From assembly GCA_965248695.1 (NCBI GenBank), contig CBDFKD010000002.1, forward strand, positions 704,001-768,000: a stretch of DNA of 64,000 bases, given 5' to 3'. Positions 4,344 through 43,745 of the stretch are shown one piece after another; position 1 is the first letter of the stretch, and the number at the start of each line of letters is the position of its first letter. The translations under genes and the position numbers were made by a program. The notes beneath the pieces are model-generated. The model was not told where the DNA came from. It saw nothing but the letters and a program-made list of their open reading frames with translations, and made no database searches. This DNA comes from Acidobacteriota bacterium (GTDB lineage: Bacteria > Acidobacteriota > UBA890 > WLXD01).

Positions 4344-5270
4344 TCATGGGTGTGTGTCTGGGATGCTCACGGGGTGCACCGGTTGGCCTTGGAGCCGGTC
4401 AGGTTTTCCCAGCGCTCGACAGCCGGCCAGCACACACGGCTCCACGAGCTTGGTCGGGAAGGTGGCGAAGTGCGCTTCGGGAAACGCATCTTTGCCGCTA
4501 TTCGAGATGGTCCAGACCGAGCGCAGGTTCGCACCTTGCTTGACTTTGCCGCCGCGGTGACAAGGGCGCTGCGGCCTAGCAGTCGGATTGGCCCCGTGAT
4601 AGTTCGGCGAATTTGCCCACCCAGAGATGTTGGATTTTCGCCACCTGCCATCAACCAAATCGCTCCGCGTCTCCGGGCGATATAGCGTTCGAACCGCGTC
4701 AGCGTCGTAGTAGTACCGAGCGGACTTCGACAGCAGGAAGACGTACTCGTGGGCCTTTGTGGGCCGATCGGTGACCGACTCGGGCATCGGGTTCGGCTTT
4801 GCCCAGAGGATGTCCGAGCGCAGCCACCAGCCATCCGCTTGCAGCGCGAAGGCGATGCGCCAGGGCATGCCGATCAAGTCCTTCGGCTTGAGCCCCGGTG
4901 TGCGCTCCATGCTTCCAGTGAGGTTCCTGATCTGCGCTGCCTTCACTTGGTTCGCGCTCAGAGCGGAGACATTCGGCGCGTGCTTGCCAGCGTGCTCTCG
5001 TGATTGGGCACCACACGAGCCCGCATAGCAGTCCCCCATGTTGAGCCACAGCGTGCCGTCGCTCCGCAGCACTCGGCGGACCTCTCGGAACATCGCCACC
5101 ATCTTGGCGACGTACTCGTCGAGTGTTGCTTCGAGCCCGACCTGGCCGTCAGTCCCGTAGTCACGGAGCCCCCAGTAGGGCGGCGAGGTCACGACGCAGT
5201 GGACCGACTCGTCCGGTAGCTGGGCGAGGCCCTCCAGCACGTCGGCACAGATCAGCCGGAAGTGCCTCAT
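4344..5270 (-). pseudogene. Phage N4/N6 DNA methyltransferase (beta class), C-terminally truncated
   Basis: VVTSPPYWGLRDY catalytic motif, WAKPNPMPESVTDRPTKAHEY, HFATFP; the expected C-terminal DPFxGSGT SAM-binding motif is missing. Confidence 0.8.
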
Positions 5271-5419
5271 GCGATGCGCTCTAGGGCCAGCAGCTCGTCG
5301 AGACGATCCTCGACCTCTGCCCGTGTGATCTCCGGGTTTCCCTCGTAGCTGGCCGCGTAGTACCCGGCCACGTAGGGCTTGAACCACTCGGCGTGCTCGA
5401 AGATGTACGGGCGCTCCAT
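5267..5419 (-). CDS. Small hypothetical phage protein
   Basis: 50-aa ORF MERPYIFEHAEWF..., stop overlaps the methyltransferase ATG. Confidence 0.45.
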   Translation of the reverse strand: MERPYIFEHAEWFKPYVAGYYAASYEGNPEITRAEVEDRLDELLALERIA

Positions 5420-7321: not shown

Positions 7322-7543
7322 AACCTCGCCATCGTTTGGTGAGAGCGGCTCTGCAAGCGTCCCTCCCGAGCCAAAAAGCGGGCGCCCAGATTCGGTCAAG
7401 AACTTACCAAACTTCAATTACGTGCGTACGTAGGCACGAAGGTATTACATGCCTGTGTAAGTAAGGTCGTTTTTGATATATCTATTATCGGACATCACAG
7501 GTCACCACCGGACACTAAAAACTAGAGTTGAGGACGGATAGAC

Positions 7544-7918
7544 ATGGTGAACAAAAAGAAGCTCCTGGGCATTTTCTCGGTTAGTTTCGGCCTTGTTGTC
7601 GCCCTGTGTTGGATAGCTATAGCTGCCCTTACCGTACAAAACACAATCGCGGTGCCGGTGATGATCGAATCCCTTGAAGAACGCGCAACACGCATGTGTC
7701 GCGGCGCTGTGGTCAGCCACCTGGCACGCTCCGTCGCCCCGGAGGTGCCAAACGGCCAACTGCGCTTTCTTCCGGGTTTCGGGCTGGAAGTGCGGGGGCA
7801 GTTGGCCGCGACGAACTCGCTCGGAGAGTCGGTAGAGACGAGCTACGTGTGCCGGATCCGCAAGGACGCCGAGTCGCTTGTTCTACAGGAAGTGGAGATA
7901 ACGGAGCATTCGCTATGA
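7544..7918 (+). CDS. Hypothetical protein with N-terminal membrane anchor
   Basis: 124 aa, GAGGA upstream, single TM segment. Confidence 0.55.
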   Translation: MVNKKKLLGIFSVSFGLVVALCWIAIAALTVQNTIAVPVMIESLEERATRMCRGAVVSHLARSVAPEVPNGQLRFLPGFGLEVRGQLAATNSLGESVETSYVCRIRKDAESLVLQEVEITEHSL

Positions 7919-7970
7919 GCGCGGCAGTGCGCCGGTCCCGGTACCGTGAATGCCAGCAAGGAGGCACGGG

Positions 7971-8357
7971 ATGAGTATCTGCACGAGCCTGGCGGTTCGA
8001 CGCGCCTATCCCAGGATGGAAGTGCAAGTGCCCATCTGGATCGAGTCGGCCGACGACGATGAACCGATCTCCGGACTGACCCTGAACCTGTCCCGCAGCG
8101 GGGCTCTTGTGCGGTTGCAGCGTCCGGTGGTGATCGGGGCGCGCTACCTTATCCGAATCCTCGCGGCTCAACCACTCTGCCAGCCACACAGCACCGCTTG
8201 TCGGCGCTGTGGCGCGGTGCCCGTCCCGGACGTGTTGCCGGAGCAGTCTCGCTGGGCTGTCGCCCTCAGGCAGAGCGCCGGGGCAAACACGTACGCCGCC
8301 GCATTCGAGTTCGAGGCCCTGCTGGACCTGTTCGAAGAAAGGCAAAAGGCCGCCTAG
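7971..8357 (+). CDS. PilZ domain protein (c-di-GMP receptor)
   Basis: RRAYPR (RxxxR) and NLSRSG (D/NxSxxG) motifs; AAGGAGG RBS before ATG 7971. Confidence 0.8.
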   Translation: MSICTSLAVRRAYPRMEVQVPIWIESADDDEPISGLTLNLSRSGALVRLQRPVVIGARYLIRILAAQPLCQPHSTACRRCGAVPVPDVLPEQSRWAVALRQSAGANTYAAAFEFEALLDLFEERQKAA

Positions 8358-19888: not shown

Positions 19889-20167
19889 ATGCCGAGTAAG
19901 AGGCACAGCGCCGAGCAGATCGTACGCAAGCTCCGGGAGGCTGAGGTGGAGCTGGCTCGAGGGGCGACGGTCAAGGATGCCTGCCGCAAGCTAGCAATCA
20001 CCGAGCACACCTACTACCGGTGGCGGCGAGAGTACGGCGGACTGAAGCTCAACCAGGCCAGAAAGCTCAAGCAACTGGAGAAGGAGAATGCCCGGCTCAA
20101 GAGGCTGGTGGCGGAAAAGGAACTCGACCTGTCGATCCTGAAGGAAGTGGCGGAGGGAAACTTCTGA
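19889..20167 (+). CDS. IS3 transposase OrfA
   Basis: HTH (EQIVRKLRE...TYYRWRREYGG) and leucine zipper LEKENARLKRLVAE. Confidence 0.92.
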   Translation: MPSKRHSAEQIVRKLREAEVELARGATVKDACRKLAITEHTYYRWRREYGGLKLNQARKLKQLEKENARLKRLVAEKELDLSILKEVAEGNF

Positions 20168-21048
20168 GCCCAGCTCGGCGGCGAGAGGCGGTGGCACATG
20201 TACGGGGGCGGCTGGGCGTCTCGGAGAGGCGGGCGTGTCGGGTACTGAAACAACCACGCACGACACACCGGTACGTGCCAAGAGAGCCGCAACAGGAGCA
20301 GATTTTGACGGAGCGGATCGTGGATTTAGCCCGACAGTACGGGCGCTACGGATATCGGAGGGTGACAGCGTTGCTGCGCATGGAGGGCTGGTCCGTGAAC
20401 CACAAACGAGTGCAGCGTATCTGGCGGCGCGAAGGGCTGAAAGTACCGAGAAAACAGCCCAAACGAGCACGGCTGTGGCTGAGCGATGGCTCCTGCATCC
20501 GGCTGCGCCCACAGCACCGGGATCATGTCTGGGCGTATGACTTCCTGCACCACCGGACGCACGACGGTCGGGCTATGAGGCTGCTGACGATCGTCGATGA
20601 GTACACACGAGAAAGCCTGGCGATCCATGTAGCACGGAAGCTCAACTCTGAGGACGTGCTGGAGCAGCTCGGGAGGTTGTTCGTACACCGGGGCATACCT
20701 GAGCACATCCGGTCGGATAACGGACCAGAGTTCACCGCCGAGGCGGTTCGCGACTGGCTGGGCCGGTTGGGCGTGGGGACGCTGTTCATCGAGCCGGGCT
20801 CGCCGTGGGAGAACGGTTACGTGGAGAGCTTCAACGGCAAGCTACGCGACGAGCTGCTGGATGGAGAGATCTTCTACACGCTCAAGGAGGCAAAGGTTCT
20901 GATCGAGAGATGGCGTCAGCACTACAACCGCATGCGACCGCACAGCTCGCTGAGCTATCGGCCGCCCGCACCCGAAGCGACGTTGTTGAAGCCGGCTGCG
21001 CTCCGCTTCGCCGGCCTCAACAACCTCTTGTCAGCACCGAGTTACTGA
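20164..21048 (+). CDS. IS3 transposase OrfB (DDE), expressed via -1 frameshift
   Basis: YGYRR, WAYDF, IRSDNGPEF, PWENGYVESFNGKLRDE; G GGA AAC slippery site at 20155-20161 followed by a CTGAGC/GCTCGG stem. Confidence 0.92.
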   Translation: MSPARRREAVAHVRGRLGVSERRACRVLKQPRTTHRYVPREPQQEQILTERIVDLARQYGRYGYRRVTALLRMEGWSVNHKRVQRIWRREGLKVPRKQPKRARLWLSDGSCIRLRPQHRDHVWAYDFLHHRTHDGRAMRLLTIVDEYTRESLAIHVARKLNSEDVLEQLGRLFVHRGIPEHIRSDNGPEFTAEAVRDWLGRLGVGTLFIEPGSPWENGYVESFNGKLRDELLDGEIFYTLKEAKVLIERWRQHYNRMRPHSSLSYRPPAPEATLLKPAALRFAGLNNLLSAPSY

Positions 21049-21082: not shown

Positions 21083-21354
21083 GCCTACTCGACGTGCTCG
21101 GCACCGTGGAGGAAGGCAAGCTCGCCGACCTGGTGGTGCTGGCCGACAACCCGCTGGAGAACATCTCCAACATCCGCACCATACAGATGGTGTTCAAGGA
21201 CGGCATCTCGGTAGAGATGGAACCGCCCGCCGGCACCCTACGCTTCTACGACTACTTCGATTCGACTGGGCTGCTGCAGGGGTTCCTGGGGAAGTCGGAA
21301 AACGCCGAGGGCGTCACGAGGTCAGGCAACCCGTATCCCGCCCAGCAGCGGTAG
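21083..21354 (+). pseudogene. C-terminal fragment of an amidohydrolase
   Basis: GTVEEGKLADLVVLADNPLENISNIRTIQMVFKDG begins immediately after the IS right end. Confidence 0.8.
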
Positions 21355-21446
21355 GCGCGCTCCTCTCGGCTCCGTTGATTCAGCGCATCAGGCCCGGTAG
21401 CCTCTCGCCGGACTCTGGCAATCGCCTCGAAACATGTGAGGAGAGC

Positions 21447-22787
21447 GTGCGATTTTCCCGAAAGTGGCTTCCTGTCGAGGGATTGGTCGGCTGCCTGGCG
21501 CTCGGCATCGCCGGCGGGCTTCTGTTCCAGGCGAATCGCGCTGCCAGCCAGCGCGATATCTACGTGTCGGACCTGCGGACTGACTCGGTGTACGTTTTCG
21601 ACGCCAACTTCGGCGCGAAGGTAAAGGTCGCCAAGAAGCCGGTGGCGATCATCGCCGGCTTCGACAATCCCTGGGGAGTTGCCGTAGACCCGGTTGGCGG
21701 CGCGTTTGCGATGGTGGCCAATCGCGGAGGAGACAGCGTGAGCCGCATCGATACGGCGACGCAGACGATTGCCGCCGTGATTCCGGTCGGCAAGCAGCCG
21801 CAAGGCATAGACATCACGCCGGACGGCCTTTTCGCGCTGGTTGCCAACACGGGATCCAAGAGCGTTTCCGTAATCGAGACGGCCACCAACAGCGTCATCA
21901 GAACTGTGAAGGTGAAGAAGGATCCGCGCAGCGTCGCCATCGACCAGGCGGGGGCGTTCGCTCTCGTCAACAGCCTCGGGTCCAAGACGATTTCGATCGT
22001 CGACCTTGCGGTAGCCACGAAATCCGCCCGCGTATCGACGCGGCGCTCTCCCAAGGGGGTCCGCCACCTGAAGAAGCGTCAAGGAGTCTGCAAGACACCT
22101 TCAGGTGGTCTTGACGCGCGATTCGAGGAGCAGGGCGGGTTCTACCTGGCGTTCTGGACCTGCAAGCCGAACCCGGCTTCCCGTCGGCTCCGGTCAGGTA
22201 TCGGCGACCTGTTCCAGGGGGTGGCATTCGATGCCGGGGATATCCTGGCGCTGTTCGCTGGATCCGAAATCACCACCGAAGATGAAATCAACGTAGAGGA
22301 CGCCAAGAAGGACCCGGAAGAGCTGGACGCCGAAGATGACGAGCTGACACGCGAACAGAATTCCCCCGGGGAGGAACACGAAGAGGAATACGAGGAAGAG
22401 CAGGATTCGAGGGAGCGCCTTCTTAGAAGCCTCCAGTTCGCACCCAACTACATCAGTTCCTCCCGGTCTGCCCGGGCGCTGAGCCACCAGTACATGTTGG
22501 TCGGTACGGGTGGTCCGACGTCTGCTGATCGGTCCATTCTGATCTCTGATTTCAGCAACACCGTGCGCATTGGCGATGGCGCCCCCTGGAACCAGTGGAC
22601 GGGCGGCGAGAACAACGGTCTCATCGTCATGCCCGACGACTGTGCGTTCCCGTGCAACATGGCGAAGTTCGCCTCCTCTTCCGCGAGGGTGGTGGTCGAC
22701 GGAGACCATGCGTTCAAGGATGCAGGGCTGGTGCCGTTCACCGCAGGCCGCAGATTCAAACAGCCTCTGATCGTCGTCGAGGAGTAG
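21447..22787 (+). CDS. Secreted YVTN/YncE-type beta-propeller protein with a Glu-rich segment
   Basis: GAGGAG RBS before GTG, signal peptide, repeats VANRGGDSVSRIDTAT / IPVGKQPQGIDITPDG / VANTGSKSVSVIETATN; acidic tract at about 22266-22417. Confidence 0.82.
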   Translation: MRFSRKWLPVEGLVGCLALGIAGGLLFQANRAASQRDIYVSDLRTDSVYVFDANFGAKVKVAKKPVAIIAGFDNPWGVAVDPVGGAFAMVANRGGDSVSRIDTATQTIAAVIPVGKQPQGIDITPDGLFALVANTGSKSVSVIETATNSVIRTVKVKKDPRSVAIDQAGAFALVNSLGSKTISIVDLAVATKSARVSTRRSPKGVRHLKKRQGVCKTPSGGLDARFEEQGGFYLAFWTCKPNPASRRLRSGIGDLFQGVAFDAGDILALFAGSEITTEDEINVEDAKKDPEELDAEDDELTREQNSPGEEHEEEYEEEQDSRERLLRSLQFAPNYISSSRSARALSHQYMLVGTGGPTSADRSILISDFSNTVRIGDGAPWNQWTGGENNGLIVMPDDCAFPCNMAKFASSSARVVVDGDHAFKDAGLVPFTAGRRFKQPLIVVEE

Positions 22788-22820
22788 GAGCTCCCCCTTG
22801 CACCAGGAGGGGTTCACCCA

Positions 22821-23288
22821 TTGATCAGGGCGGGTGCCGGCGTAGCGCGATGGTCGATCAACGTCTTCGTCGGTGGCTTTCTGGCGTTGCAGCTCCTGCT
22901 GCCCTTGCCAGCGTTGCTGCGCGACCAGACCGAGACACGGGGCATCCTCTCCTGGAACATGTACGCGGAGCGCTACCGCTGTACCGCACGTTATAGCGCC
23001 GTCACTTCAGACGGCACTCGGATCCCGCTGACGGTGAGTCGGTACTTCAACAACCCCGACCGAGCGGGGCTTGTCCGACACCGCGATGTACTGCCTAGAT
23101 TCCACGCTTGGTTGTGTGAAGACGCCGGGGCTGGCGAGGCGCCAATTGCTCTTCAAGGCTCCGTCGCCTGCTCGGCGAACGGTGGGCCAGAAGTCCAGCT
23201 AGTGCGCCAAGAGGTCGATCTCTGCACAGCGCCGGAGTTTGGCGTAGAGGCCGTTCCTCGACCCCTTGTGTCGGGCAGCTCACGGTGA
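22821..23288 (+). CDS. Stand-alone lumenal domain of a vitamin K-dependent gamma-carboxylase-like protein
   Basis: One TM ending QLLLP, then LSWNMY, HRDVLPRFHAWL and SANGGPEVQLVRQEVDL, collinear with GGCX QLFLP, YSWDMM, HADMLKQYATCL and SINDRFQQRIFDPRVDI (alignment by eye). Confidence 0.65.
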   Translation: MIRAGAGVARWSINVFVGGFLALQLLLPLPALLRDQTETRGILSWNMYAERYRCTARYSAVTSDGTRIPLTVSRYFNNPDRAGLVRHRDVLPRFHAWLCEDAGAGEAPIALQGSVACSANGGPEVQLVRQEVDLCTAPEFGVEAVPRPLVSGSSR

Positions 23289-24244
23289 CGCGGGAGCGCT
23301 TGTCCAGGTCAGGAAGTCGCCTTACACGGAGCTGGAATCGGTTCTGGTTCGCCGAGGGCAGCGTCGTGACGCTCGGCGTGTTTCGAATCCTGTTCGCCTA
23401 TTGCCTCTGGGACGAGGTGGCGACGACCCACGCCCGGAGCACCGGTGCGATCGAAGGGGGATTTCACCTTCCATACTTCGAGTGGATACCGCTGATGACG
23501 GTTCCCACCTACGACCTGGTGCATCTGTTGCAGTATCCCCTGATCCTGACTCTGGGGATCGGATTGCTCAGCCGCACCTCGTGTGGGGCGCTGTTGGTGC
23601 TTCAGGGCTGGGTCTTCTTCGCCGATCAGCTCAACTATCGGAACCACCCATCCTTCTTCTTGCTGGTGTTGTTGTGCCTGCTCCTGGCACCTGCCGCCGA
23701 CGCCTTGTCGGTGCACTCCCTGGTACGGCGCTGGCGCGATCACAGCGCGGCCGGGCTCTGGGGCAGGGTTCAACCGCTCACGTTCCAGCGGTTGATTCAG
23801 GTGCAACTCTCCCTTGTCTATCTGTGGGCGGCACTCCACAAGTTGAACCGAGCCTTCCTCGACGGCAGTGTGTTGGCCCACCACCTCGGAGAGGATCTCT
23901 TCGAAGGCGGTTCCGGGAGGTTCTTGGGATCGACATTGACCCCACAGGCTATCGAGGGGTGGCGAGCCTTCATGCAGGAGCCCTCGAACCTGATTCTCGC
24001 GGCATGGATCACGGTGGCGCTGGAGTTGTTCCTGGCGGGCGCCCTGTGGTTCCCGGCGACGCGGCCCGTTGGCATCGGGCTGGGAACGATGTTTCATCTG
24101 GCGATTGCGTGGGGGATGGGCATCCGGGTATTCTCCCTTGCCGCAATCGCCTGCTACCTGCTGTTCCTCGATCCAGATACTCTGCCAGCGACAGGTCGGC
24201 GCGTTCGCGCCTTCCTTCGACCGGTCGTGACTGTTGGCCGATGA
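23285..24244 (+). CDS. HTTM domain protein (membrane domain of vitamin K-dependent gamma-carboxylase family)
   Basis: LGVFRILF, NYRNH, LIQVQLSLVYLWAALHKLN, FLDG and FHLAIAWGMGIRVFS motifs; GTGA overlap with the upstream gene. Confidence 0.85.
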   Translation: MTRERLSRSGSRLTRSWNRFWFAEGSVVTLGVFRILFAYCLWDEVATTHARSTGAIEGGFHLPYFEWIPLMTVPTYDLVHLLQYPLILTLGIGLLSRTSCGALLVLQGWVFFADQLNYRNHPSFFLLVLLCLLLAPAADALSVHSLVRRWRDHSAAGLWGRVQPLTFQRLIQVQLSLVYLWAALHKLNRAFLDGSVLAHHLGEDLFEGGSGRFLGSTLTPQAIEGWRAFMQEPSNLILAAWITVALELFLAGALWFPATRPVGIGLGTMFHLAIAWGMGIRVFSLAAIACYLLFLDPDTLPATGRRVRAFLRPVVTVGR

Positions 24245-26127
24245 GCACCTTCCAGAGGGGGAGTCGAAAGCGCCCCATGACTGAGCCGCGAGTCGTTGCC
24301 TCGAAGCAAGAGGACTCGGTGGTGATCCGGTTCGCCGGTGACTCCGGCGACGGAATGCAGCTCACCGGGACCCAGTTCACCACGACCTCCGCTCTGGTGG
24401 GCAACGACTTCGCCACATTCCCCGACTTCCCGGCCGAGATCCGCGCTCCGGCGGACACCATGCCCGGGGTGAGCGCCTACCAGCTGCACTTCTCTTCCAA
24501 CGACGTCTACACCGCCGGCGACGCCCCGGACGTTCTCGTGGCGATGAACGCGGCAGCGCTGAAGGTAAGCCTGCCCATGCTCCCGGCGGGCCGCACGATC
24601 ATCGCCAACACCGACGGGTTCGGAGACGCCAGCCTGTCGAAGGCGGGCTACGCGCAAAACCCGCTGGAGGACGGAACGATCGACGGCTACAACGTCATCC
24701 CCGTGCCACTCACCAGCCTCACCATCAAGGTGTTGGAGGACTCGCCGCTCTCGGTTCGCGAGCGGCGGCGCTGCAAGAATTTCTACGCCCTCGGGATCAT
24801 GTACTGGCTCTACTCGCGCCCGATGGAGACCACGGAAGAGTGGATCCAGAAGCGCTTCAAATCGAAGCCCGACATCGTCGACGCCAACCTCACCGCCCTG
24901 CATGCCGGCTACGCGTACGCCCAGGCCAGCGAGTTGTTCCAGGTTCGATACGAGGTTCCTCCGACCCCGGTGGATCCCGGGCTGTACCGGAACATATCCG
25001 GCAACAAGGCCCTGGCGCTCGGGCTCTACTCGGCATCGGAGCGCGCGGGGTTGCAGCTGTTCTTCGGTTCCTACCCCATCACACCGGCTTCGGACATCTT
25101 GTCGGAGCTGGCGCGGCTCAAATCACAGGGGGTGGTCACCTTTCAGGCCGAGGACGAGATTGCCGCCGTCTGCTCCGCGATTGGCGCCTCCTTCGGCGGC
25201 TCGATCGGCGTAACCGCGACGAGTGGTCCCGGCCTTGCCCTCAAGGGCGAGGCCATCGGTCTGGCGGTGACCACGGAGCTTCCGCTCGTGATTATCAACG
25301 TCCAGCGCGGCGGTCCCAGCACCGGTCTCCCCACCAAGACTGAGCAGTCGGACCTCTTGCAGGCGATGTGGGGGAGGAACGGAGAGTGCCCGCTGGCCGT
25401 GATCGCGGCATCCACTCCGGGAGATTGCTTTGCCACCGCCATGGAGGCGGTTCGTATTGCGCTCGAGTACATGACGCCGGTGCTCCTGCTTTCGGATGGC
25501 TATATCGCCAACGGCGCCGAACCTTGGCTCGTTCCGAGCGCCAGCGATCTGCCCGACATCTCCGTCCAGTTCCGAACCGACCCCGAGGGCTTCCAACCAT
25601 TCGCGAGGGATCCGGAGACCCTGGCGCGACCCTGGGTAAGACCGGGCACCCCGGGGTTGGAACACCGGATTGGCGGTCTGGAGCACCAAGACGTTTCGGG
25701 GAACGTCTCCTACGACCCCGCGAACCACGAGAACATGACCGTTCTTCGCGAGGAGAAGATCGCTCGGATAGCCAAGGACATCCCCCCGGCAAAGCCCTTC
25801 GGCGATGACAGCGGCGATCTCCTGCTGGTCGGCTGGGGCGGAACCTATGGATCGCTTCATGCCGCCACGCTTGCCGCGCGGGCCGACGGTCTCAGCGTCT
25901 CGCACGTCCACCTCCGCCATATCAACCCCTTCCCATCAAACCTCGACGAGGTGCTGGCGTCGTTCGATCGAGTACTGGTAGCGGAGCTGAACCGGGGCCA
26001 GCTTGATGTGCTGCTACGCGCCCGCTTCCTGGTAGATACCCTGAACCTCAACAAGGTTCGTGGCCAGCCCTTCTCGGTAGGGGAGATCTTGGACGCCATA
26101 GAGACAGCTCTGGAAGGTAGCGAATGA
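24241..26127 (+). CDS. korA: 2-oxoacid:ferredoxin oxidoreductase alpha subunit
   Basis: FAGDSGDGMQLTG, YPITPAS, QAEDEIAA, QRGGPSTGLPTKTEQSD; start at 24241 (ATGA overlap) or 24277. Confidence 0.93.
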   Translation: MSTFQRGSRKRPMTEPRVVASKQEDSVVIRFAGDSGDGMQLTGTQFTTTSALVGNDFATFPDFPAEIRAPADTMPGVSAYQLHFSSNDVYTAGDAPDVLVAMNAAALKVSLPMLPAGRTIIANTDGFGDASLSKAGYAQNPLEDGTIDGYNVIPVPLTSLTIKVLEDSPLSVRERRRCKNFYALGIMYWLYSRPMETTEEWIQKRFKSKPDIVDANLTALHAGYAYAQASELFQVRYEVPPTPVDPGLYRNISGNKALALGLYSASERAGLQLFFGSYPITPASDILSELARLKSQGVVTFQAEDEIAAVCSAIGASFGGSIGVTATSGPGLALKGEAIGLAVTTELPLVIINVQRGGPSTGLPTKTEQSDLLQAMWGRNGECPLAVIAASTPGDCFATAMEAVRIALEYMTPVLLLSDGYIANGAEPWLVPSASDLPDISVQFRTDPEGFQPFARDPETLARPWVRPGTPGLEHRIGGLEHQDVSGNVSYDPANHENMTVLREEKIARIAKDIPPAKPFGDDSGDLLLVGWGGTYGSLHAATLAARADGLSVSHVHLRHINPFPSNLDEVLASFDRVLVAELNRGQLDVLLRARFLVDTLNLNKVRGQPFSVGEILDAIETALEGSE

Positions 26128-36477: not shown

Positions 36478-37845
36478 ATGAATCGAATCGGGATCGTGGG
36501 TATCGACTGGCGCAAGCGCGGCCCCGAGAGAATAGCCCAGTACACCATACCGACCGATGAGCGCGCCTCCCGGCTGCTCGAGCTGCAGGAACGGATCGGG
36601 ACTCGCGAGCTCGTCTACCTGGCAACCTGCAATCGTGTCGAGCTGGTCTTCGTGACTCCGCAGGCGGAGACTGTGGCGCTGTTTCGGTCGCGCATCTTCA
36701 GCGCGCTTCGTGGCCGTCCACCGCGGCCACGCGAGGCCGAAGTGGAGCTGGCGGCCTGGGGTGGCGAGGGCGCTGCGGAGCATCTGTTTCTGCTCGCTTC
36801 GGGACTCGAGTCTGCGATGCTCGGCGAGCGCGAGATCGTTGGGCAGATGCGAACCGCCCTGGAGCTGGCTCGGAGTGTCGGCACCAGCGGACGAATCCTG
36901 GAATGGGTGTTCGACGAGGCCTTCAAGGTCGGCAAGCGCGTCCACCGGATCACCTCGATCGGCGAGGGCAAGGTGTCGATTGGCGAGCTCGCCCTCGCCC
37001 ACGTCCGCGACCGACTCGGCCGTGCGCCCGGTGCTGTGGCGCTAGTTGGCGTCTCGCCGATGACGCTGCACTGTGCCCGGGCTCTCGTCGAGGAGCAGGT
37101 GCCGACGCTCGTATTCAACCGTAGCCCGAACAAGGCCCGCGAGATGGCCGACGAGTTGGGTATCGAAGGGCATGGCCTCGACAGGCTCCGGCGTGGCCTC
37201 GATATCGAGCTCGCTGCCGTGGTGCTGGCCACCGCGGCACCCGAGCCGGTCCTCCGGCGCTCGGCTTTGGAGCGTCTCGCGGCCGGCGGTCGCGGCCACT
37301 CACCGCTAATCGTCGATTTGGCCACACCCGCCGACGTCGATCCCGAGGAAGCCCGGCTGGTCGGCCTCGAGCGGATCGGCATGGAGCAGATTCTCGAGGA
37401 GGCCGCGATCCACCGTCGCGGTCGGACTCAAGCCGCGGAGGGGGCGCGCGATCTTGTCGACCACGCGCTGGTGGACCTGGACGCCAAGTTGGTCGATCGG
37501 GTGCTGGCACCGATGTTGGCTGCGCTCCAACGGCGCTACCGGACGACCGCGGAGCGCGGCGTGGATCGCCTCTTGCGCAAGGAGCTCGGCGACGTCGACG
37601 AGGCCGCGGAGCGCGCCATCCGGCGCTGGGCGGAAGTGCTGGCCCATCGCTTCGCCCACATTCCCTCGACCGGTCTCCGCACGGTCGCCAAGAAACACGG
37701 CTTCGAGGTCCTGGAGAGCTTCTTCGCGGGTGCTGACGATGCCCTCGCCGGCGAGCTGGCGCGGATACGCTCCGCGCAGGATCGTCCCCTTCCGGGTGGC
37801 CTGGACGCCGAGCCGAGCAGATCGTTGCCAGAGGTATTGGGATGA
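36478..37845 (+). CDS. hemA: Glutamyl-tRNA reductase
   Basis: LATCNRVE catalytic Cys, ASGLESAMLGEREIVGQ, VDLATPADVDP. Confidence 0.9.
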   Translation: MNRIGIVGIDWRKRGPERIAQYTIPTDERASRLLELQERIGTRELVYLATCNRVELVFVTPQAETVALFRSRIFSALRGRPPRPREAEVELAAWGGEGAAEHLFLLASGLESAMLGEREIVGQMRTALELARSVGTSGRILEWVFDEAFKVGKRVHRITSIGEGKVSIGELALAHVRDRLGRAPGAVALVGVSPMTLHCARALVEEQVPTLVFNRSPNKAREMADELGIEGHGLDRLRRGLDIELAAVVLATAAPEPVLRRSALERLAAGGRGHSPLIVDLATPADVDPEEARLVGLERIGMEQILEEAAIHRRGRTQAAEGARDLVDHALVDLDAKLVDRVLAPMLAALQRRYRTTAERGVDRLLRKELGDVDEAAERAIRRWAEVLAHRFAHIPSTGLRTVAKKHGFEVLESFFAGADDALAGELARIRSAQDRPLPGGLDAEPSRSLPEVLG

Positions 37846-38765
37846 GGATCCGCATCGGCACCCGGGGCTCTCGACTGGCGCTGGTGCAAGCGCGCTCGAT
37901 CGCGGCGCGTCTGCGAGCGCACGGCCACGAAACGATCGAGGTGATCGTTCAGACGCTTGGCGACCGCGACCAGACGTCAGCCTTCCCCGAGTTCGGCAGC
38001 CCCGGTGTTTTCGTCCGTGAGATCGAGCGAGCGCTCGTTGCCGAGACGATCGACCTCGCGGTACACAGTTACAAGGACCTGCCGTCCACAGGGCCCGACG
38101 ATCTCGTCATCGCCGCCGTGCCGGAGCGGCTCGACGCGGCCGACCAACTGCTCATTCGCACCGATGTGCTGGAGCTCGACCGGGGTCGACTCGCTGTGGG
38201 CGCCCACGCCCGGATCGGCACCAGCTCGGCCCGGCGTGCGGCCCTACTACGTGGGGCACGCGAGGATTTGAGCATCTTGCCTTTGCGAGGCAACGTCGAC
38301 ACCCGGATCCGCAAGCTGCGGACGGGCGAGTATGACGCCATCGTGCTGGCCGGCGCCGGCCTCACTCGCCTCGAGGCTGCGGGCATTAGCGAGCTCGGCC
38401 AAAACGACGACGTGCACGTGCAGCGGCTCGATCCCGAGTGGTTCGTACCCGCACCCACGCAAGGCGCCCTTGCACTGCAGATCCGACGCGACGATGCCGC
38501 GCTCGCAAAGGCGCTGTCGGTTCTGCACGACGAGGCTGTGGCACGGCCGCTCGTGGCCGAGCGATTGCTCCTGGCGCGCGTCGAGGGCTCCTGTCAGCTT
38601 CCGTTCGGTGCCTGGTGCACGACCAACGCATCCGGCTTCCGGCTAGTCTTCGCCCTCGGCGATGGTGAGCGTCTGCTGGTCGACCGAGTCGACGGCGACG
38701 ATGCTACGGCACTGGCGGAGCGCGCCTGGCAACGGCTCACAGAGAGCGAGCTACGGGTGCAATGA
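37842..38765 (+). CDS. hemC: Hydroxymethylbilane synthase
   Basis: IGTRGSRLALVQ, AVHSYKDLP, GTSSARR, LRGNVDTR, EGSCQLP. Confidence 0.95.
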   Translation: MRIRIGTRGSRLALVQARSIAARLRAHGHETIEVIVQTLGDRDQTSAFPEFGSPGVFVREIERALVAETIDLAVHSYKDLPSTGPDDLVIAAVPERLDAADQLLIRTDVLELDRGRLAVGAHARIGTSSARRAALLRGAREDLSILPLRGNVDTRIRKLRTGEYDAIVLAGAGLTRLEAAGISELGQNDDVHVQRLDPEWFVPAPTQGALALQIRRDDAALAKALSVLHDEAVARPLVAERLLLARVEGSCQLPFGAWCTTNASGFRLVFALGDGERLLVDRVDGDDATALAERAWQRLTESELRVQ

Positions 38766-39493
38766 GATCGCTGGACGGATTGAGAATCTTGCTGACGCGA
38801 AGCCAGTGCGGCTGCCGCGAATGGGCGGGGAGAATCGAGGCCCGTGGTGGCGCGCCGGTGTCGTTTCCCTGCATCCAAACGGTTTTGCTCGATCCAGCAG
38901 GCGGCCTTGCCGGGCGCTTGAGCGCCGCCATTGCCAAGGCCCACTGGCTGGCGCTTACCTCCGCCCGTGGGGTCCAGGCCGTCGATCGGCTGGTTGCCGC
39001 ACCGCTGCCGTCTCGACTGGCAATCGCAGCCGTCGGTCCAAGCACGGCCGCGGCTGCGCGCGCGCACCTGGGCCGGGTCGATCTCGTTTCGGCGGCAGGC
39101 ACCGCCGCGGCGCTGGGCATCGACCTGGCCGAGCGGCTGGATCTCGAGCAGCATCGGGCGCCGCGGGTGGTGGTAGCTGCAGCGGTGGGCGGACGTCGCG
39201 ACGTGGAACAGGTGCTCGAGCCCAGAGGCGTGGCCGTCACACGGGTCGATGTTTACCGCACCGAGCCGGCGCCGGCGCTCGAGCCACGCCAGTCGCTCGA
39301 CTCGGTCGACGTCGTCTTGCTGGCAAGCCCTTCCGCGGTGGACGGCCTGCGGGCCCGCGCCGACCTGAGCTCTCGGATCCCCATCGTGTCCATCGGCCCA
39401 TCGACCACCGCCGCAGCTCGCGCGGTGGGCATGCGCGTCGCCGCCGAGGCGGAGCAACGCAGCCTCGAGGCAATGCTGGAGGCAATACCTTGA
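38762..39493 (+). CDS. hemD: Uroporphyrinogen-III synthase
   Basis: ILLTR, LTSARGV, AVGPST, VYRT, ASPSAV, SIGPST; position after hemC. Confidence 0.9.
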   Translation: MRSLDGLRILLTRSQCGCREWAGRIEARGGAPVSFPCIQTVLLDPAGGLAGRLSAAIAKAHWLALTSARGVQAVDRLVAAPLPSRLAIAAVGPSTAAAARAHLGRVDLVSAAGTAAALGIDLAERLDLEQHRAPRVVVAAAVGGRRDVEQVLEPRGVAVTRVDVYRTEPAPALEPRQSLDSVDVVLLASPSAVDGLRARADLSSRIPIVSIGPSTTAAARAVGMRVAAEAEQRSLEAMLEAIP

Positions 39494-40476
39494 GCGCTCC
39501 GCTGCTGCACCGTCCTCGCCGCCTCCGCCGATCCGCCGTACTGCGGGCGGCGGTGCGGGAAACGCACGTTCGCCCCGAGCAGCTGATGATGCCCCACTTC
39601 ATCCTGCCGCAGCCGGGAGCCGAAGAGAGCATCCCCTCGATGCCGGGGATCGACCGCCTCGGAACCGACAAGCTACTGCCGCGCGTCGAGGCCGATCTGC
39701 GACTCGGTATTGGCTCAGTGTTGCTGTTCGGCCTGGCGCCCGCGGGACAGAAAGACAGCCGCGGCTCCGCAGCAAGCGACGCTGCCGGAAGCCAGGCAAA
39801 GGCTATCGGCGAGCTCAAGCGCGCCTTCGGCGCCGATCTTGTCGTGGTGACCGACGTCTGCTTGTGCGGGTTCACCGACCATGGCCACTGTGGCATCGTC
39901 GACGGACACAGCGTGGTGAACGATCCGAGCGTCGATCGCCTCGTCGAGGTGGCACTGACCCACGCCGAGGCCGGGGCAGATCTGGTGGCACCGAGTGACA
40001 TGATGGACGGCCGTGTCGGCGCGATTCGGCGAGCCCTCGACAAGAGTGGTTTCGTCGACACCGGGATTCTGGCCTACTCGGTCAAGTACGCCTCCGCCTA
40101 CTATGGTCCGTTCCGCGACGCCGCCGACTCGGCCCCGCAGTTCGGCGATCGGCGCAGCTACCAGATGGACCCGCCCAACGTCCGTGAGGCCGTGCGGGAG
40201 GTGCGCCTGGACGAGAAGGAAGGGGCCGACGCCGTGATGGTGAAGCCCGCTCTCGCCTACCTCGACGTGGTGCGCGCGGTGCGGGCCGAGACCATGCTGC
40301 CGCTGGCCGCCTACAACGTCTCCGGCGAATACTCCGCCGTGAAGGCGGCCGCCGAGCGGGGCTGGCTCGACGAGCCCGCGGTGGTCGTCGAGAACCTCGT
40401 GGCCATGCGCCGCGCCGGCGCCGATATCCTGATCAGCTATCACGCCCGGCAGGCACTAGAGGAGGGCTGGCTATGA
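39490..40476 (+). CDS. hemB: Porphobilinogen synthase (Zn-type)
   Basis: RPRRLR, DVCLCGFTDHGHCG, APSDMMDGR, MVKPA, YNVSGEY. Confidence 0.96.
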   Translation: MSAPLLHRPRRLRRSAVLRAAVRETHVRPEQLMMPHFILPQPGAEESIPSMPGIDRLGTDKLLPRVEADLRLGIGSVLLFGLAPAGQKDSRGSAASDAAGSQAKAIGELKRAFGADLVVVTDVCLCGFTDHGHCGIVDGHSVVNDPSVDRLVEVALTHAEAGADLVAPSDMMDGRVGAIRRALDKSGFVDTGILAYSVKYASAYYGPFRDAADSAPQFGDRRSYQMDPPNVREAVREVRLDEKEGADAVMVKPALAYLDVVRAVRAETMLPLAAYNVSGEYSAVKAAAERGWLDEPAVVVENLVAMRRAGADILISYHARQALEEGWL

Positions 40477-41774
40477 GCTCCAACTCGCTGGCCGTCTCAC
40501 TTCGAGAGCGGGCTGTCCGGGTCATGCCGGGGGGTGTGAGCTCTCCCGTGCGAGCCTTTCGAGCAGTGGGCGGCGAGGCGCTCATCGTCGAGCGCGGCGA
40601 CGGCTGCCACCTGACCTCGGTGGACGGCCGTCGGCTGATCGACTTCGTATGCTCCTGGGGGCCGTTGGTGCTCGGGCACGCCCATCCGGAGATTGTAACC
40701 GCGATCGAGGAGGCCGCCAGGCGCGGCACCAGCTACGGCGCGACCTGCCCGGACGAGATCGCGCTGGCCGAGCTGATGTGCGCCACCTATCCGGGCCTCG
40801 ATCAGGTGCGCTTCGTGTCATCCGGGACGGAGGCCACGATGAGCGCCCTCCGTGTTGCCCGTGGGGCCACAGGGCGCGACCTGGTGGTGAAGTTCGCGGG
40901 CTGCTACCACGGTCACGTGGACCATTTGCTGGTAGCGGCGGGCTCCGGACTGGCAACGTTCGGTCAGCCGGACTCCTCGGGCGTTCCTGACGCCTTCGCC
41001 TCGCTCACCCGCGTACTCCCGCTCGACGACGAGGGCGCGCTGGAGGAGCTCTTCCGTGCCGATGGCGAGCAGATCGCCGCGGTCATTCTTGAGCCCGTGC
41101 CGGCGAACAACGGGCTGCTGCTTCAGCGGCCGGAGTTCCTTCGCCGCATTCGGCAGCTCACTGCCGAGCACGGCGCTCTGCTCATCTTCGACGAGGTTAT
41201 CTCGGGTTTTCGCCTCGCCCCGGGCGGCGCCGCCGAGCATTACGGGATCGAGCCTGACCTGGCCTGTTTCGGGAAGGTGATCGGCGGTGGCCTGCCGGTC
41301 GGTGCGTTCGGCGGGCGTGTCGACCTGATGCGGCAACTGGCTCCAGAGGGAGGCGTCTATCAGGCCGGCACTCTTTCCGGCAATCCGCTAGCGATGGCAG
41401 CCGGCCTGGCGACGCTACGAATCTTGCAGCGTGAGGAGGCTTGGGGCCGCCTCGAGGTGCTCGGTGCCCATTTGCAGCGCCGTTTCGAGCTCGCCATAGA
41501 CGACCCTTCGGTATCGCTGGTGCGTGCCGGATCGGTGTTCTGGCTGGCGCTACAAGCGGGACAACCACCACGGCGCCCCGATGCGATTGGCCCCGACGCG
41601 GCGGATCGCTACCGGTCGATCTTCCACTCGTTGCTCGCGTCCGGAGTCTACCTGGCGCCGTCCGCCTACGAGGTGGGATTCCTGTCCTTGGCGCATTCCG
41701 AGGCCGAGATCGACCTGCTCGTAGACGCCTTGGTCCGGGCGCTACGAACCGAATCGACGGGAACGGACCAATGA
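40473..41774 (+). CDS. hemL: Glutamate-1-semialdehyde 2,1-aminomutase
   Basis: PGGVSSPVRAF, SGTEATM, GCYHGH, GKVIGGGLPVG, QAGTLSGNP. Confidence 0.96.
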   Translation: MSSNSLAVSLRERAVRVMPGGVSSPVRAFRAVGGEALIVERGDGCHLTSVDGRRLIDFVCSWGPLVLGHAHPEIVTAIEEAARRGTSYGATCPDEIALAELMCATYPGLDQVRFVSSGTEATMSALRVARGATGRDLVVKFAGCYHGHVDHLLVAAGSGLATFGQPDSSGVPDAFASLTRVLPLDDEGALEELFRADGEQIAAVILEPVPANNGLLLQRPEFLRRIRQLTAEHGALLIFDEVISGFRLAPGGAAEHYGIEPDLACFGKVIGGGLPVGAFGGRVDLMRQLAPEGGVYQAGTLSGNPLAMAAGLATLRILQREEAWGRLEVLGAHLQRRFELAIDDPSVSLVRAGSVFWLALQAGQPPRRPDAIGPDAADRYRSIFHSLLASGVYLAPSAYEVGFLSLAHSEAEIDLLVDALVRALRTESTGTDQ

Positions 41775-42490
41775 ACGCCGATTCCATGCCACGAGTCCTG
41801 GTCGTCGAGGACGAGATCGATCTGGGCGACACGATCCGCGACAACCTCCTGGCCGAGGGCTGCCAGGTAGATTTGGCACGCTCCGGGTTGGAGTCGCTGG
41901 CGCTGGCGCGCGACCATCCCTACGACTTGATCCTCCTGGACGTGATGATGCCGCCACCGGACGGTTTTTCGGTCTGCGAGACCCTTCGTTGCGAGGGGCA
42001 CACGGTGCCGATCCTGTTTCTGACTGCGCGCGCCGGTCCACAAGATCGCATCCGTGGTCTCGAGGCCGGTGGCGACGACTACCTGACCAAGCCCTTCCAC
42101 CTGCGCGAGTTGTTGTTGCGCGTCAACGCCCTGCTGCGCCGCGGTACCGTTCGCGGCCAGGCACCGACAATCCGCTTCGGCGACAACCGCTTCGATCTAG
42201 AGACCGGGCGAGCGGTGGCCTGGGATGGAGCCGAGCATCGGGTCGCCGGTAGGGAAGCCGCCATCCTCGCCCTCTTGAGCGAACGGGAGAACGAGTCGCT
42301 GAGCCGTGACACGATTCTCCAGGAGGTCTGGCGCCACGACGTCTATCCGTCGACACGAGTGATCGATGAGCTCATCGACCGACTTCGGCGCCGCTTCGAG
42401 CCGCAGCCCGACCGGCCACGGCACTTTCACCGGGTAGCCGGACGCGAATACCGGTTCACTCGCGAGCCAAGAGGTAGCGAGTGCTCCTGA
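41771..42490 (+). CDS. OmpR/PhoB-family response regulator
   Basis: VVEDE, LLDVMMP, FLTAR, DYLTKPF receiver motifs plus winged-helix C-terminus. Confidence 0.92.
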   Translation: MNADSMPRVLVVEDEIDLGDTIRDNLLAEGCQVDLARSGLESLALARDHPYDLILLDVMMPPPDGFSVCETLRCEGHTVPILFLTARAGPQDRIRGLEAGGDDYLTKPFHLRELLLRVNALLRRGTVRGQAPTIRFGDNRFDLETGRAVAWDGAEHRVAGREAAILALLSERENESLSRDTILQEVWRHDVYPSTRVIDELIDRLRRRFEPQPDRPRHFHRVAGREYRFTREPRGSECS

Positions 42491-42670
42491 TCATAAGTAC
42501 GGTGACGTTTGCCGGAGCTTCGCTCCTGCCCTACGGGTGGCGGCGGGACCGGCCGTGTTGGGTGTCGCGGCTCCTCGACGATACACCCGGCATCGCCCTC
42601 GTCGCCGCTCCTACAAATCGTTCCAGTCGCGCTCGCCACAAACGTCACCGTACTCACAATCAGGAGCACT
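42480..42670. mobile_element. Small MITE-like element with 32-bp imperfect terminal inverted repeats
   Basis: AGTGCTCCTGATCATAAGTACGGTGACGTTTG (42480-42511) versus reverse complement of 42639-42670, 29/32 identical; CTAG at the right end, CGAG at the left. Confidence 0.72.
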
Positions 42671-42671
42671 A

Positions 42672-43745
42672 GTGCGAGATCTGATGGTGCGCGCCTTGCG
42701 CGCCGAGCCGGTGCCACGCCGACCGATCTGGTTAATGCGTCAGGCCGGGCGAATGCTGCCCGAGTATCGCCGCCTGCGCGAGCGTCACTCGTTCCTCGAG
42801 CTGTGCGCCCAGCCCGAGCTGGCGACCGAAGTAACGCTCATGCCGGTACAGCGCTTCCCGCTTGATGCCGCGATCGTCTTCGCCGACCTCATGAGCCCGG
42901 TGGCCGCCATGGGCATCGAGGTGAAGTTCGCGCCCGGTCCGATCGTCGATCAGCCGCTACGCGATGCCGCCGCGATCCGATCGTTGCTGCATCCGGACGC
43001 GCAGGAGATCGCACCCGAGGTGATCGAGACGATACGACTCGTTACCCGGGAGCTCGGCGGTCGCATTCCCGTCCTCGGGTTCGCCGGCGGTCCGTGGAGC
43101 ATTGCCGCCTATCTCGTACAAGGTGACGGCCGGCGGGAGTTCCCGGCCCTGCGCGCCATGGCCGCAGCCGAGCCCCGAGTACTGAACGACTTGCTTGCCC
43201 AACTGGCGGCGGTCTGCGCCGACTACCTCGTGGAGCAGGCTCGCGCCGGGGCGGCGGCGGTGCAGGTGTTCGAGACCTGGTCCGGCCTTCTGTCACGGCC
43301 CGATTGGGAGCGGCTGGTCAAGCCGCATCTGCGCACCCTGCTCGAGCGTGTCGGCCGCGCCGGCGTGCCGCGCATCCTGTTCCTCAAGCACGCGGCACAC
43401 CTCGTGGATGCAGCACTGGATCTTCCAGTGGAAGTACTCTCGGTTGACTGGCGCGTCGATCTGCCGACGCTTCAGCGCCGGCTGGGACCAGGACGCGCAG
43501 TACAGGGCAACCTCGACCCGGCCGTCCTTGTTGCTGGCCCGGAGGCGACTCGCGCCGCCGCCCGGACCCTCCTGGAGCGCACCGCACCGACAGGGCACGT
43601 GTTCAATCTCGGTCACGGCGTGCTGCCCGAGACGCCGCTGGACAGCGTCGAGGCGTTGATCGAAGAGGTCCACGCTGCCGGCGACAGTGTGCCGCCGGGG
43701 CCGGTCGCCAGTGCTAGCGCACCGGTGGAGGTACCGAATGGCTAA
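42672..43745 (+). CDS. hemE: Uroporphyrinogen decarboxylase
   Basis: PIWLMRQAGR, AAIVFADL, QGNLDP, FNLGHG. Confidence 0.96.
   Translation: MRDLMVRALRAEPVPRRPIWLMRQAGRMLPEYRRLRERHSFLELCAQPELATEVTLMPVQRFPLDAAIVFADLMSPVAAMGIEVKFAPGPIVDQPLRDAAAIRSLLHPDAQEIAPEVIETIRLVTRELGGRIPVLGFAGGPWSIAAYLVQGDGRREFPALRAMAAAEPRVLNDLLAQLAAVCADYLVEQARAGAAAVQVFETWSGLLSRPDWERLVKPHLRTLLERVGRAGVPRILFLKHAAHLVDAALDLPVEVLSVDWRVDLPTLQRRLGPGRAVQGNLDPAVLVAGPEATRAAARTLLERTAPTGHVFNLGHGVLPETPLDSVEALIEEVHAAGDSVPPGPVASASAPVEVPNG

Follow-up and report, generated by a model that had tools for sequence, protein, structure and literature searches.

A split, order-permuted GGCX-like gene pair beside the gene for a Glu-rich protein in an Acidobacteriota genome

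Results

Three genes form a 2.9 kb island

Within a 64,000 nucleotide (nt) stretch of an Acidobacteriota genome, referred to as the window, we analysed three neighbouring open reading frames (ORFs) of the + strand, P0001 (21447-22787), P0002 (22821-23288) and P0003 (23285-24244), the latter two of which resemble separate parts of GGCX, the vitamin K-dependent carboxylase of animals. An earlier note on this DNA had described the three genes as co-oriented and tightly spaced, and so they are: 33 nt lie between the stop of P0001 (22787) and the TTG start of P0002 (22821), and the stop of P0002 shares the GTGA at 23285-23288 with the GTG start of P0003. P0001, for which an alternative in-frame TTG start exists at 21375, is a protein of 446 amino acids (aa), exported or membrane-anchored, with YVTN β-propeller repeats and an acidic tract at residues 270-326 (22254-22424, + strand). 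P0002 (155 aa) is preceded by a GGAGG ribosome-binding site (22806-22810, + strand) 10 nt before its start, and P0003 is an HTTM membrane protein of 319 aa. A scan for promoters and terminators found no terminator-like site in the P0001/P0002 or the P0002/P0003 junction and no promoter-like sites; the three terminator-like sites that it reported are all intragenic and at chance level.

Neither P0002 nor P0003 was found in the four same-genus genomes (G001-G004) by tblastn or with the family profile. In two of them, G002 and G004, the sequence matching 21085-21348 of the window is separated by only about 83-85 nt from that matching 24275 onward, and the 2.9 kb of the window that are missing there hold exactly P0001, P0002 and P0003. 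This island (21355-24276, + strand) extends from the stop of a truncated amidohydrolase gene to the start of korA, which encodes the alpha subunit of a 2-oxoacid:ferredoxin oxidoreductase and begins 32 nt past P0003. As the three genes constitute one insertion relative to two sister genomes, they were gained, or lost, together, and this co-insertion is the best argument for P0001 belonging with the P0002/P0003 pair. Inspection of the island junctions by eye revealed no direct repeats or att-like ends. The amidohydrolase gene is cut down to its last 86 codons (21094-21354), a remnant with ~84% identity to G002/G004 over 264 bases, and directly upstream of it lies an IS3-family element (19889-21048) composed of an HTH_Tnp_1 orfA and an rve orfB.

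P0002 corresponds to the part of GGCX that follows the membrane domain

P0002 has a transmembrane helix at residues ~9-33, followed by an extracytoplasmic domain with cysteines at positions 54, 99, 117 and 135. Basic residues ahead of the helix, together with the four cysteines of the extracytoplasmic part, point to an N-in, domain-out topology. The only Pfam family matched by P0002 at E <= 1 is PF22777 (VKGC_lumenal_dom; E 1.5e-5, 25.4 bits), which is also matched by 43 of 60 P0002 relatives at E <= 0.01, with a best value of 2.2e-13. Searching all six frames of the genome with PF22777 gave no match at E <= 1, as compared to 1.5e-5 in the hmmscan of the protein, which is a difference in sensitivity and not evidence against the assignment.

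We searched 1.84 billion representatives exhaustively with phmmer and obtained 83 relatives of P0002 at E <= 1e-3, 66 of them at E <= 1e-10. All 83 are 62-195 aa long and are therefore stand-alone proteins, none being fused. An alignment of 60 relatives shows one N-terminal helix, an (F)SWNMY loop, an HRD.LP.FH.WLC block and conserved cysteines, with Q24, W45 and L91 being invariant. When the profile made from these 60 members was compared with the PDB, it matched residues 361-491 of human GGCX over nearly its whole length (E about 1e-3), the next match having an E of 0.6. The SWNMY motif (residues 44-48 of P0002; 22950-22964, + strand) aligns with GGCX 398-402, inside loop LL9.

The AlphaFold2 model of P0002 calculated from the family alignment reached a predicted local distance difference test (pLDDT) of 88.7. 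Foldseek comparison of this model with the PDB returned GGCX chains as the top 16 matches (E 1e-4 to 0.4, query-normalised template modelling score 0.50-0.61), 15 of the 16 with a probability of 1.00, and every lower match had a probability of at most 0.12. VIA-align superposed 103-147 residues of the model on GGCX with Z 8.2-8.4 and a root-mean-square deviation of 3.0-5.0, the next unrelated chain reaching Z 4.2. In the alignments spanning nearly the whole model, P0002 1-155 covers GGCX from 345/352 to 512/534; the match extends no further than residue 512 in 11 of the 16 alignments and reaches 534-599 in five. Profile, Foldseek and VIA-align thus agree on the placement that the earlier note had made by eye, with the ORF at 22821-23288 as the part of GGCX behind the membrane domain, SWxM region included. 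By the domain description in the excerpts of PMC12647623 used here, the region matched by P0002 consists of the last transmembrane helix (TM9), the lumenal loop LL9 and clamp A. Weak tblastn matches of P0002 in G009, G018 and G058 (E 0.003-0.01, with internal stops) were not repeated with the family profile and were discarded as noise.

P0003 is an HTTM protein with the catalytic residues of GGCX

P0003 matches the Pfam HTTM family PF05090 with E 2.6e-27 and 96.5 bits (cut-off 27.7), is the sole HTTM match in the 5.9 Mb genome and stops right after the HTTM domain. A phmmer alignment of its residues 28-298 with human GGCX 62-314 (E 0.003) pairs N120-H121 of the YRNH motif (23642-23647, + strand) with N159-H160, K186 of AALHKLN (23840-23842, + strand) with K218, E247 with D263, F270-H271 with the FH of GGCX and F283-S284 (24131-24136, + strand) with F299-S300 of the CO2 pocket. 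W223 of GGCX is paired with F191, the tryptophan being replaced by Phe/Tyr. Of the GGCX residues, K218 acts on the quinol as general base; the substrate Glu is held at its carboxylate by N159, H160 and Y395, F299 stacks on CO2, and within loop LL9 the M401 backbone is in contact with K218 and bicarbonate (PMC12647623, in the excerpts used).

We compared P0003 with 13 P0003-like partner proteins taken from related loci (41-53% identity), all of which share N120, H121, K186, H271, F283 and S284; E247 is nearly invariant. The PF05090 match and the alignment of N120/H121, K186 and the FH motif bear out the earlier reading of this ORF as an HTTM protein that retains the His160 and Lys218 regions of GGCX.

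The two halves are paired across related loci and are predicted to form a complex

A search of species genomes and metagenomes with a 14-sequence alignment of the small protein yielded 34 related loci with 35 small-gene matches. A P0003-like gene starts 18-87 nt after the small-gene match on the same strand in 29 of the 35 cases, and it is present after all 27 matches that have more than 250 nt of downstream sequence; at the six matches without a P0003-like gene the contig ends at most 176 nt after the match. One metagenome contig (L040, 1362-4704) carries two such pairs in tandem.

Fused relatives occur in the same phylum, a 464 aa protein of G279 and a 552 aa protein of G039, and both have the order HTTM then lumenal domain. 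The G279 protein matches HTTM with E 9e-90, VKGC_lumenal with E 8.9e-46 and the small-protein profile with E 3e-22. Since the small gene comes first in the split form, the pair did not arise by simple fission of the fused form. Sequence profile and predicted fold agree, and the small gene stands first in 29 related places, which supports the idea that a GGCX homologue is divided here over two genes whose order is reversed.

A complex prediction for P0002 and P0003, which the earlier note had proposed as a check, was run with both alignments and gave an interface score (ipSAE) of 0.85 in three of three runs, as compared to 0.00 for the best of three controls; 58 of 80 solved complexes attained the same mark, as did 2 of 110 mismatched pairs. 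The runs share at least 96% of their contacts, and the pLDDT of the partners is at least 81. In the predicted interface the helix and the loop of P0002 are joined to residues 166-200 and 115-120 of P0003: the helix (10-32) lies on P0003 166-186, 21-22, 127 and 134, and the loop (40, 42-51) lies on 178-191 and 115-120. W45 of P0002, located in this loop, touches residues 178, 181, 182 and 185 and thus adjoins K186. The predicted packing of P0002 against P0003 is the arrangement that GGCX has within one chain. Taken together, sequence, fold, conservation of the pairing and controlled complex prediction give good support to a split, order-permuted GGCX-like enzyme.

P0001 carries an acidic tract that its relatives lack

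The N-terminus of P0001 is hydrophobic and resembles a transmembrane segment or a signal, and YVTN repeats were detected by TIGR02276 (E 4.2e-24, three stretches) and PF21783 (E 1.2e-8), in residues ~70-200 only. The description of an exported β-propeller protein upstream of the pair therefore stands as far as the signal-like N-terminus and the repeat type are concerned, whereas the repeats cover just that part of the chain. For residues 200-446 a word-based search found only P0001 itself and the ESM Atlas returned no usable match. The AlphaFold2 model, calculated from a four-sequence alignment, has a mean pLDDT of 44 and is confident only for residues ~70-190.

The acidic tract holds 18 Glu and 7 Asp in 57 residues, and with them 18 of the 25 Glu of the whole protein. 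A match of the Pfam family UCMA (Gla-rich protein) on this tract (E 0.18) was rejected as compositional. The only full-length relative of P0001 found is the 416 aa protein of G006 (26% identity, E 2e-27), and partial relatives occur in G009 and G010. At the position of the tract these three show a gap or non-acidic sequence in the four-sequence alignment, and with the queries used here neither a P0002 nor a P0003 relative was found in their genomes. By tblastn, relatives of P0001 were found at none of the 35 related loci. The maximal content of Asp plus Glu in any 40-residue segment was 0.40 among 68 flanking ORFs of 21 loci, as compared to 0.525 in P0001. We know of no carboxylase-recognition motif in bacteria with which the tract could be compared.

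Distribution and neighbours of the pair

Among 401 sampled genomes of the phylum, the small-protein profile had a match in 6, and it had none in the four genomes of the same genus. Related loci with a named host belong to Acidobacteriota, Binatia, Kiritimatiellia and Thermoanaerobaculia, and the nearest ESM Atlas clusters, with 162, 75 and 61 members labelled just 'hypothetical protein', are mostly from Myxococcota. Neighbouring genes with Pfam matches encode DinB, M42 aminopeptidase, M23 peptidase, PMT_2 glycosyltransferases and Big_2 proteins, as well as CNNM/CorC, a DCC1-like oxidoreductase, CinA, RibD and transposases. Transposase genes flank the copies in L010 and L012 and both copies in G317, a genome in which the HTTM-TPR type known from G045 stands beside IS256-like transposases.

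An association with acidic exported proteins occurs in G045, a genome of another family of the same phylum whose order is represented by two genomes only. It contains two diverged pairs (L060, G045:C1 1213-4534; L071, G045:C107 1229-4418) in which the HTTM protein carries C-terminal TPR repeats and the small proteins are 59% identical. Each pair is preceded by two secreted paralogues of 500-592 aa with at least 18% Asp plus Glu, one of which overlaps the small gene by 4 nt. At L033 the gene directly before the pair encodes an exported, pilus-like protein that has an acidic run. These cases agree with the expectation of the earlier note that split homologues sit next to acidic exported proteins, whereas the 68 flanking ORFs of 21 loci, with their maximum of 0.40, do not. 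Exported neighbours thus recur near the pairs without being consistent, and the two G045 copies are not independent of each other.

On two Kiritimatiellia contigs the HTTM gene is followed by a gene for a lipoprotein with a Tyr/Asp/Glu-rich start (L013 2253-3830, L014 349-1712), which overlaps the HTTM gene by 4 nt in L014 and forms one frame with it in L013. The Acidobacteriota locus L010 has a pilus-like gene cluster upstream, whose proteins are related to the one directly before the L033 pair; its HTTM gene (7424-8313) matches P0003 as two pieces in different frames, looks frameshifted and is flanked by IS3-type and DDE_Tnp_1/DUF772 transposase genes. At L045 a gene for a DCC1-like thiol-disulfide oxidoreductase (1622-2143, - strand) lies divergently upstream of the pair; in the DUF5819 system, such a domain forms part of the HTTM protein itself (10.64898/2026.08.19.745780, in the portion used).

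Discussion

We consider it probable that P0002 and P0003, each as a subunit, together make up one membrane enzyme of the GGCX/HTTM superfamily. P0003 would provide the catalytic transmembrane core with the equivalents of Lys218, Asn159/His160 and the CO2-pocket residue Phe299, and P0002 would contribute in trans the last transmembrane helix, the SWNMY active-site loop (LL9) and, towards the periplasm, the first lumenal clamp. Translational coupling joins the P0002 and P0003 genes, which appear to move as an autonomous, patchily distributed two-gene module. The complex may bind menaquinol supplied by the futalosine route, which the lysine would deprotonate; the deprotonated quinol would react with O2 to yield a strong base, and an exported substrate would lose a carbon-bound proton of an acidic side chain to this base before being carboxylated. 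As clamp B and the C-terminal domain are absent, a propeptide would not be held in the manner of the animal enzyme. The subunit architecture is well supported; quinol dependence, carboxylation chemistry and substrate are inferred. A supply of menaquinol is plausible from the gene content, as two PF02621 genes (futalosine-pathway MqnA/MqnD-type; 207 and 163 bits) and one VKOR-family gene (75 bits) are present elsewhere in the genome.

Several observations weigh against such an enzyme. The PF22777 score of P0002 itself, 25.4 bits, is below the curated cut-off of 27.7. In the profile alignment GGCX 392-395 appears as an insertion relative to the P0002 family, leaving the substrate-holding Tyr395 without an evident counterpart, and neither P0002 nor P0003 has a counterpart of clamp B or the C-terminal domain. 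The conserved HTTM residues would be expected also in relatives with another chemistry. Because GGCX structures are solved, the complex score may stem from the memory of the prediction model, and it is evidence of likeness to GGCX, not of binding. A model search for the classical MenA gave no match in the genome, so that menaquinone synthesis hangs solely on the two futalosine-pathway matches.

With GGCX the pair shares the HTTM core with equivalents of N159/H160, K218, D263 (Glu in P0003) and F299/S300, as well as the transmembrane helix, SW.M loop and first lumenal domain matching GGCX ~352-510, which here reside on the separate P0002. GGCX, however, is one chain of 758 aa in which HTTM precedes the lumenal part, whereas P0002 and P0003, with 474 aa in total, are encoded by two genes of which that for the C-terminal part comes first; clamp B, the C-terminal domain and the propeptide cleft of GGCX have no counterpart here, and Tyr395 has no evident one. 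The fused bacterial VKGC orthologues of G279 and G039 consist of the same two domains and differ in being a single chain, HTTM then lumenal, as opposed to the split and permuted arrangement. MloH of malonomycin biosynthesis is likewise a fused bacterial carboxylase (10.64898/2026.08.19.745780, in the portion used).

The same 2026 preprint (10.64898/2026.08.19.745780) presents DUF5819 proteins and their HTTM-DCC1 neighbours as a predicted GGCX-like complex, to which the small protein contributes a single transmembrane helix and one half of the clamp; the other half is absent and the substrate channel differs. As far as that portion of the preprint goes, the likeness to our pair comprises a one-helix protein with an extracytoplasmic domain, a gene adjoining the HTTM gene and the absence of the second clamp side. 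In contrast, P0002 matches PF22777 and has no DUF5819 match at E <= 1, P0003 lacks a DCC1-like domain, and the lineages differ. In the literature we searched, in part as excerpts, only this preprint describes a comparable split complex, and a stand-alone partner of the PF22777 type was not found described; supplementary files, which possibly hold such data, lay outside the search.

The earlier note had also drawn an analogy to SdpA/SdpB of Bacillus subtilis. There, as for YitP/YitO, a small gene precedes an HTTM gene, and the operon additionally encodes an exported protein whose maturation depends on the two products (PMC6818787, in the portion used). The analogy holds for gene order, the exported substrate gene being located downstream there and the candidate upstream here, but not for family membership: P0003 scores 26.1 bits against the SdpB model TIGR04033 (cut-off 178.4), and no SdpA model is among the 11 NCBIfam families matched at E <= 1 by any of 60 small-protein relatives.

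The pair could also be a real two-subunit HTTM enzyme with a chemistry other than Glu carboxylation, acting in another maturation of exported peptides, proteins or envelope molecules; we regard this as unlikely. Examples of such chemistry would be SdpA/SdpB-dependent processing of SdpC, Asp carboxylation by MloH or quinol epoxidation alone. SdpA and SdpB are both needed to process SdpC to the SDP toxin (PMC6818787, citing Perez Morales 2013), MloH carboxylates an aspartyl residue of a polyketide-peptide (PMC12647623; 10.64898/2026.08.19.745780), and the analogous DUF5819 complex has a blocked substrate channel with an alternative opening (10.64898/2026.08.19.745780), each according to the portion of the source used. 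Within the pair, the lack of an evident Tyr395 counterpart and the absence of clamp B would fit this reading, as would the heterogeneous neighbours and the weak SdpB-family matches in 11 of the 13 partner proteins (best E 5e-11); the GGCX residues that hold the Glu carboxylate (N159/H160) and CO2 (F299) are, however, invariant in the partner family, and no toxin-like or RiPP-like (ribosomally synthesised and post-translationally modified peptide) precursor gene fits into the gaps of 33 nt and 32 nt flanking the pair. A Leptospira orthologue is said to epoxidise vitamin K without carboxylating Glu, which is one reason to keep this alternative. That the genes are a decaying or functionless remnant of horizontal acquisition, their resemblance to GGCX having no present function, appears very improbable. 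Mobile DNA is close by, with the IS3 element and the truncated amidohydrolase gene just upstream, the related loci are often beside transposases (L010, L012, G317), the L010 relative looks frameshifted, and the module occurs in scattered genomes of the phylum only (6 of 401); yet none of the three frames is broken, a good ribosome-binding site is present along with start/stop coupling, relatives of 41-53% identity all share the catalytic residues, and the pairing is kept across several phyla.

The fullest reading of the locus is that the split enzyme γ-carboxylates the Glu tract of P0001 to give a calcium-binding surface protein containing γ-carboxyglutamate (Gla), which we consider rather unlikely. 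It draws on the fact that the three genes fill exactly the 2.9 kb missing between the amidohydrolase gene and korA in G002/G004, on the 33 nt between P0001 and P0002 without a terminator-like site, on the prediction that the tract-bearing P0001 and the domain of P0002 are both extracytoplasmic, on the tract being an insertion peculiar to this copy of P0001, and on G045, where two copies of a distant pair each stand behind two acidic secreted paralogues. The G045 parallel, however, comes from a single genome in two copies and involves proteins not homologous to P0001, and P0001 relatives are found at none of 35 related loci, where the neighbours are heterogeneous (DinB, M42, PMT_2, Big_2, M23, CNNM, transposases) and none of 68 flanking ORFs (21 loci) is as acidic as the tract (0.40 versus 0.525). 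Moreover, the enzyme lacks the propeptide-binding cleft of GGCX, and the structure model of P0001 is too poor to place the tract as an exposed loop. The claim that P0001 is the dedicated substrate is accordingly weak: no relative was found at the related loci, the neighbours vary, and the closest relatives are without the tract and come from genomes in which the queries used here did not find the pair. Conservation of the neighbourhood speaks against a link between P0001 and the enzyme, and the weak case for this link consists of the co-insertion and the one distant parallel in G045. The Glu-rich segment of P0001 is nevertheless the best candidate substrate at the locus, with a small chance of being the true one. 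That the island is a self-contained Gla system, in which a menaquinol-using two-subunit enzyme γ-carboxylates an 18-Glu loop of P0001, is a reading that we hold to be quite unlikely; if it were true, P0001 would be the first Gla protein of ribosomal origin known from bacteria, and its modifying enzyme a minimal, propeptide-independent carboxylase.

To our knowledge, most bacterial HTTM proteins have no known substrate. In the literature found, in part as excerpts, the only proven bacterial carboxylase of the superfamily acts on a polyketide-peptide. With 155 + 319 aa, the P0002/P0003 pair represents a compact version in two subunits, conserved and apparently mobile, in which the catalytic residues are kept and the propeptide cleft is gone. 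It offers a tractable system for the minimal vitamin K-dependent machinery and its bacterial targets, and the window adds a candidate substrate that is unusually well defined. Carboxylation of the Glu tract, if it occurs, would bring Gla biology to bacteria; if it does not, the pair would still be a clean entry to a large family.

Other features of the window

The left end of the window carries a gene for a terminase large subunit (1-1398, cut by the window start) and one for an N6/N4 DNA methylase (4347-5387), which are likely a prophage remnant. A run of haem-synthesis genes at 36478-43742 encodes glutamyl-tRNA reductase, porphobilinogen deaminase, ALA (5-aminolaevulinate) dehydratase, a class-III aminotransferase and uroporphyrinogen decarboxylase; the ALA dehydratase is located in an ORF of 604 aa and may be a fusion.

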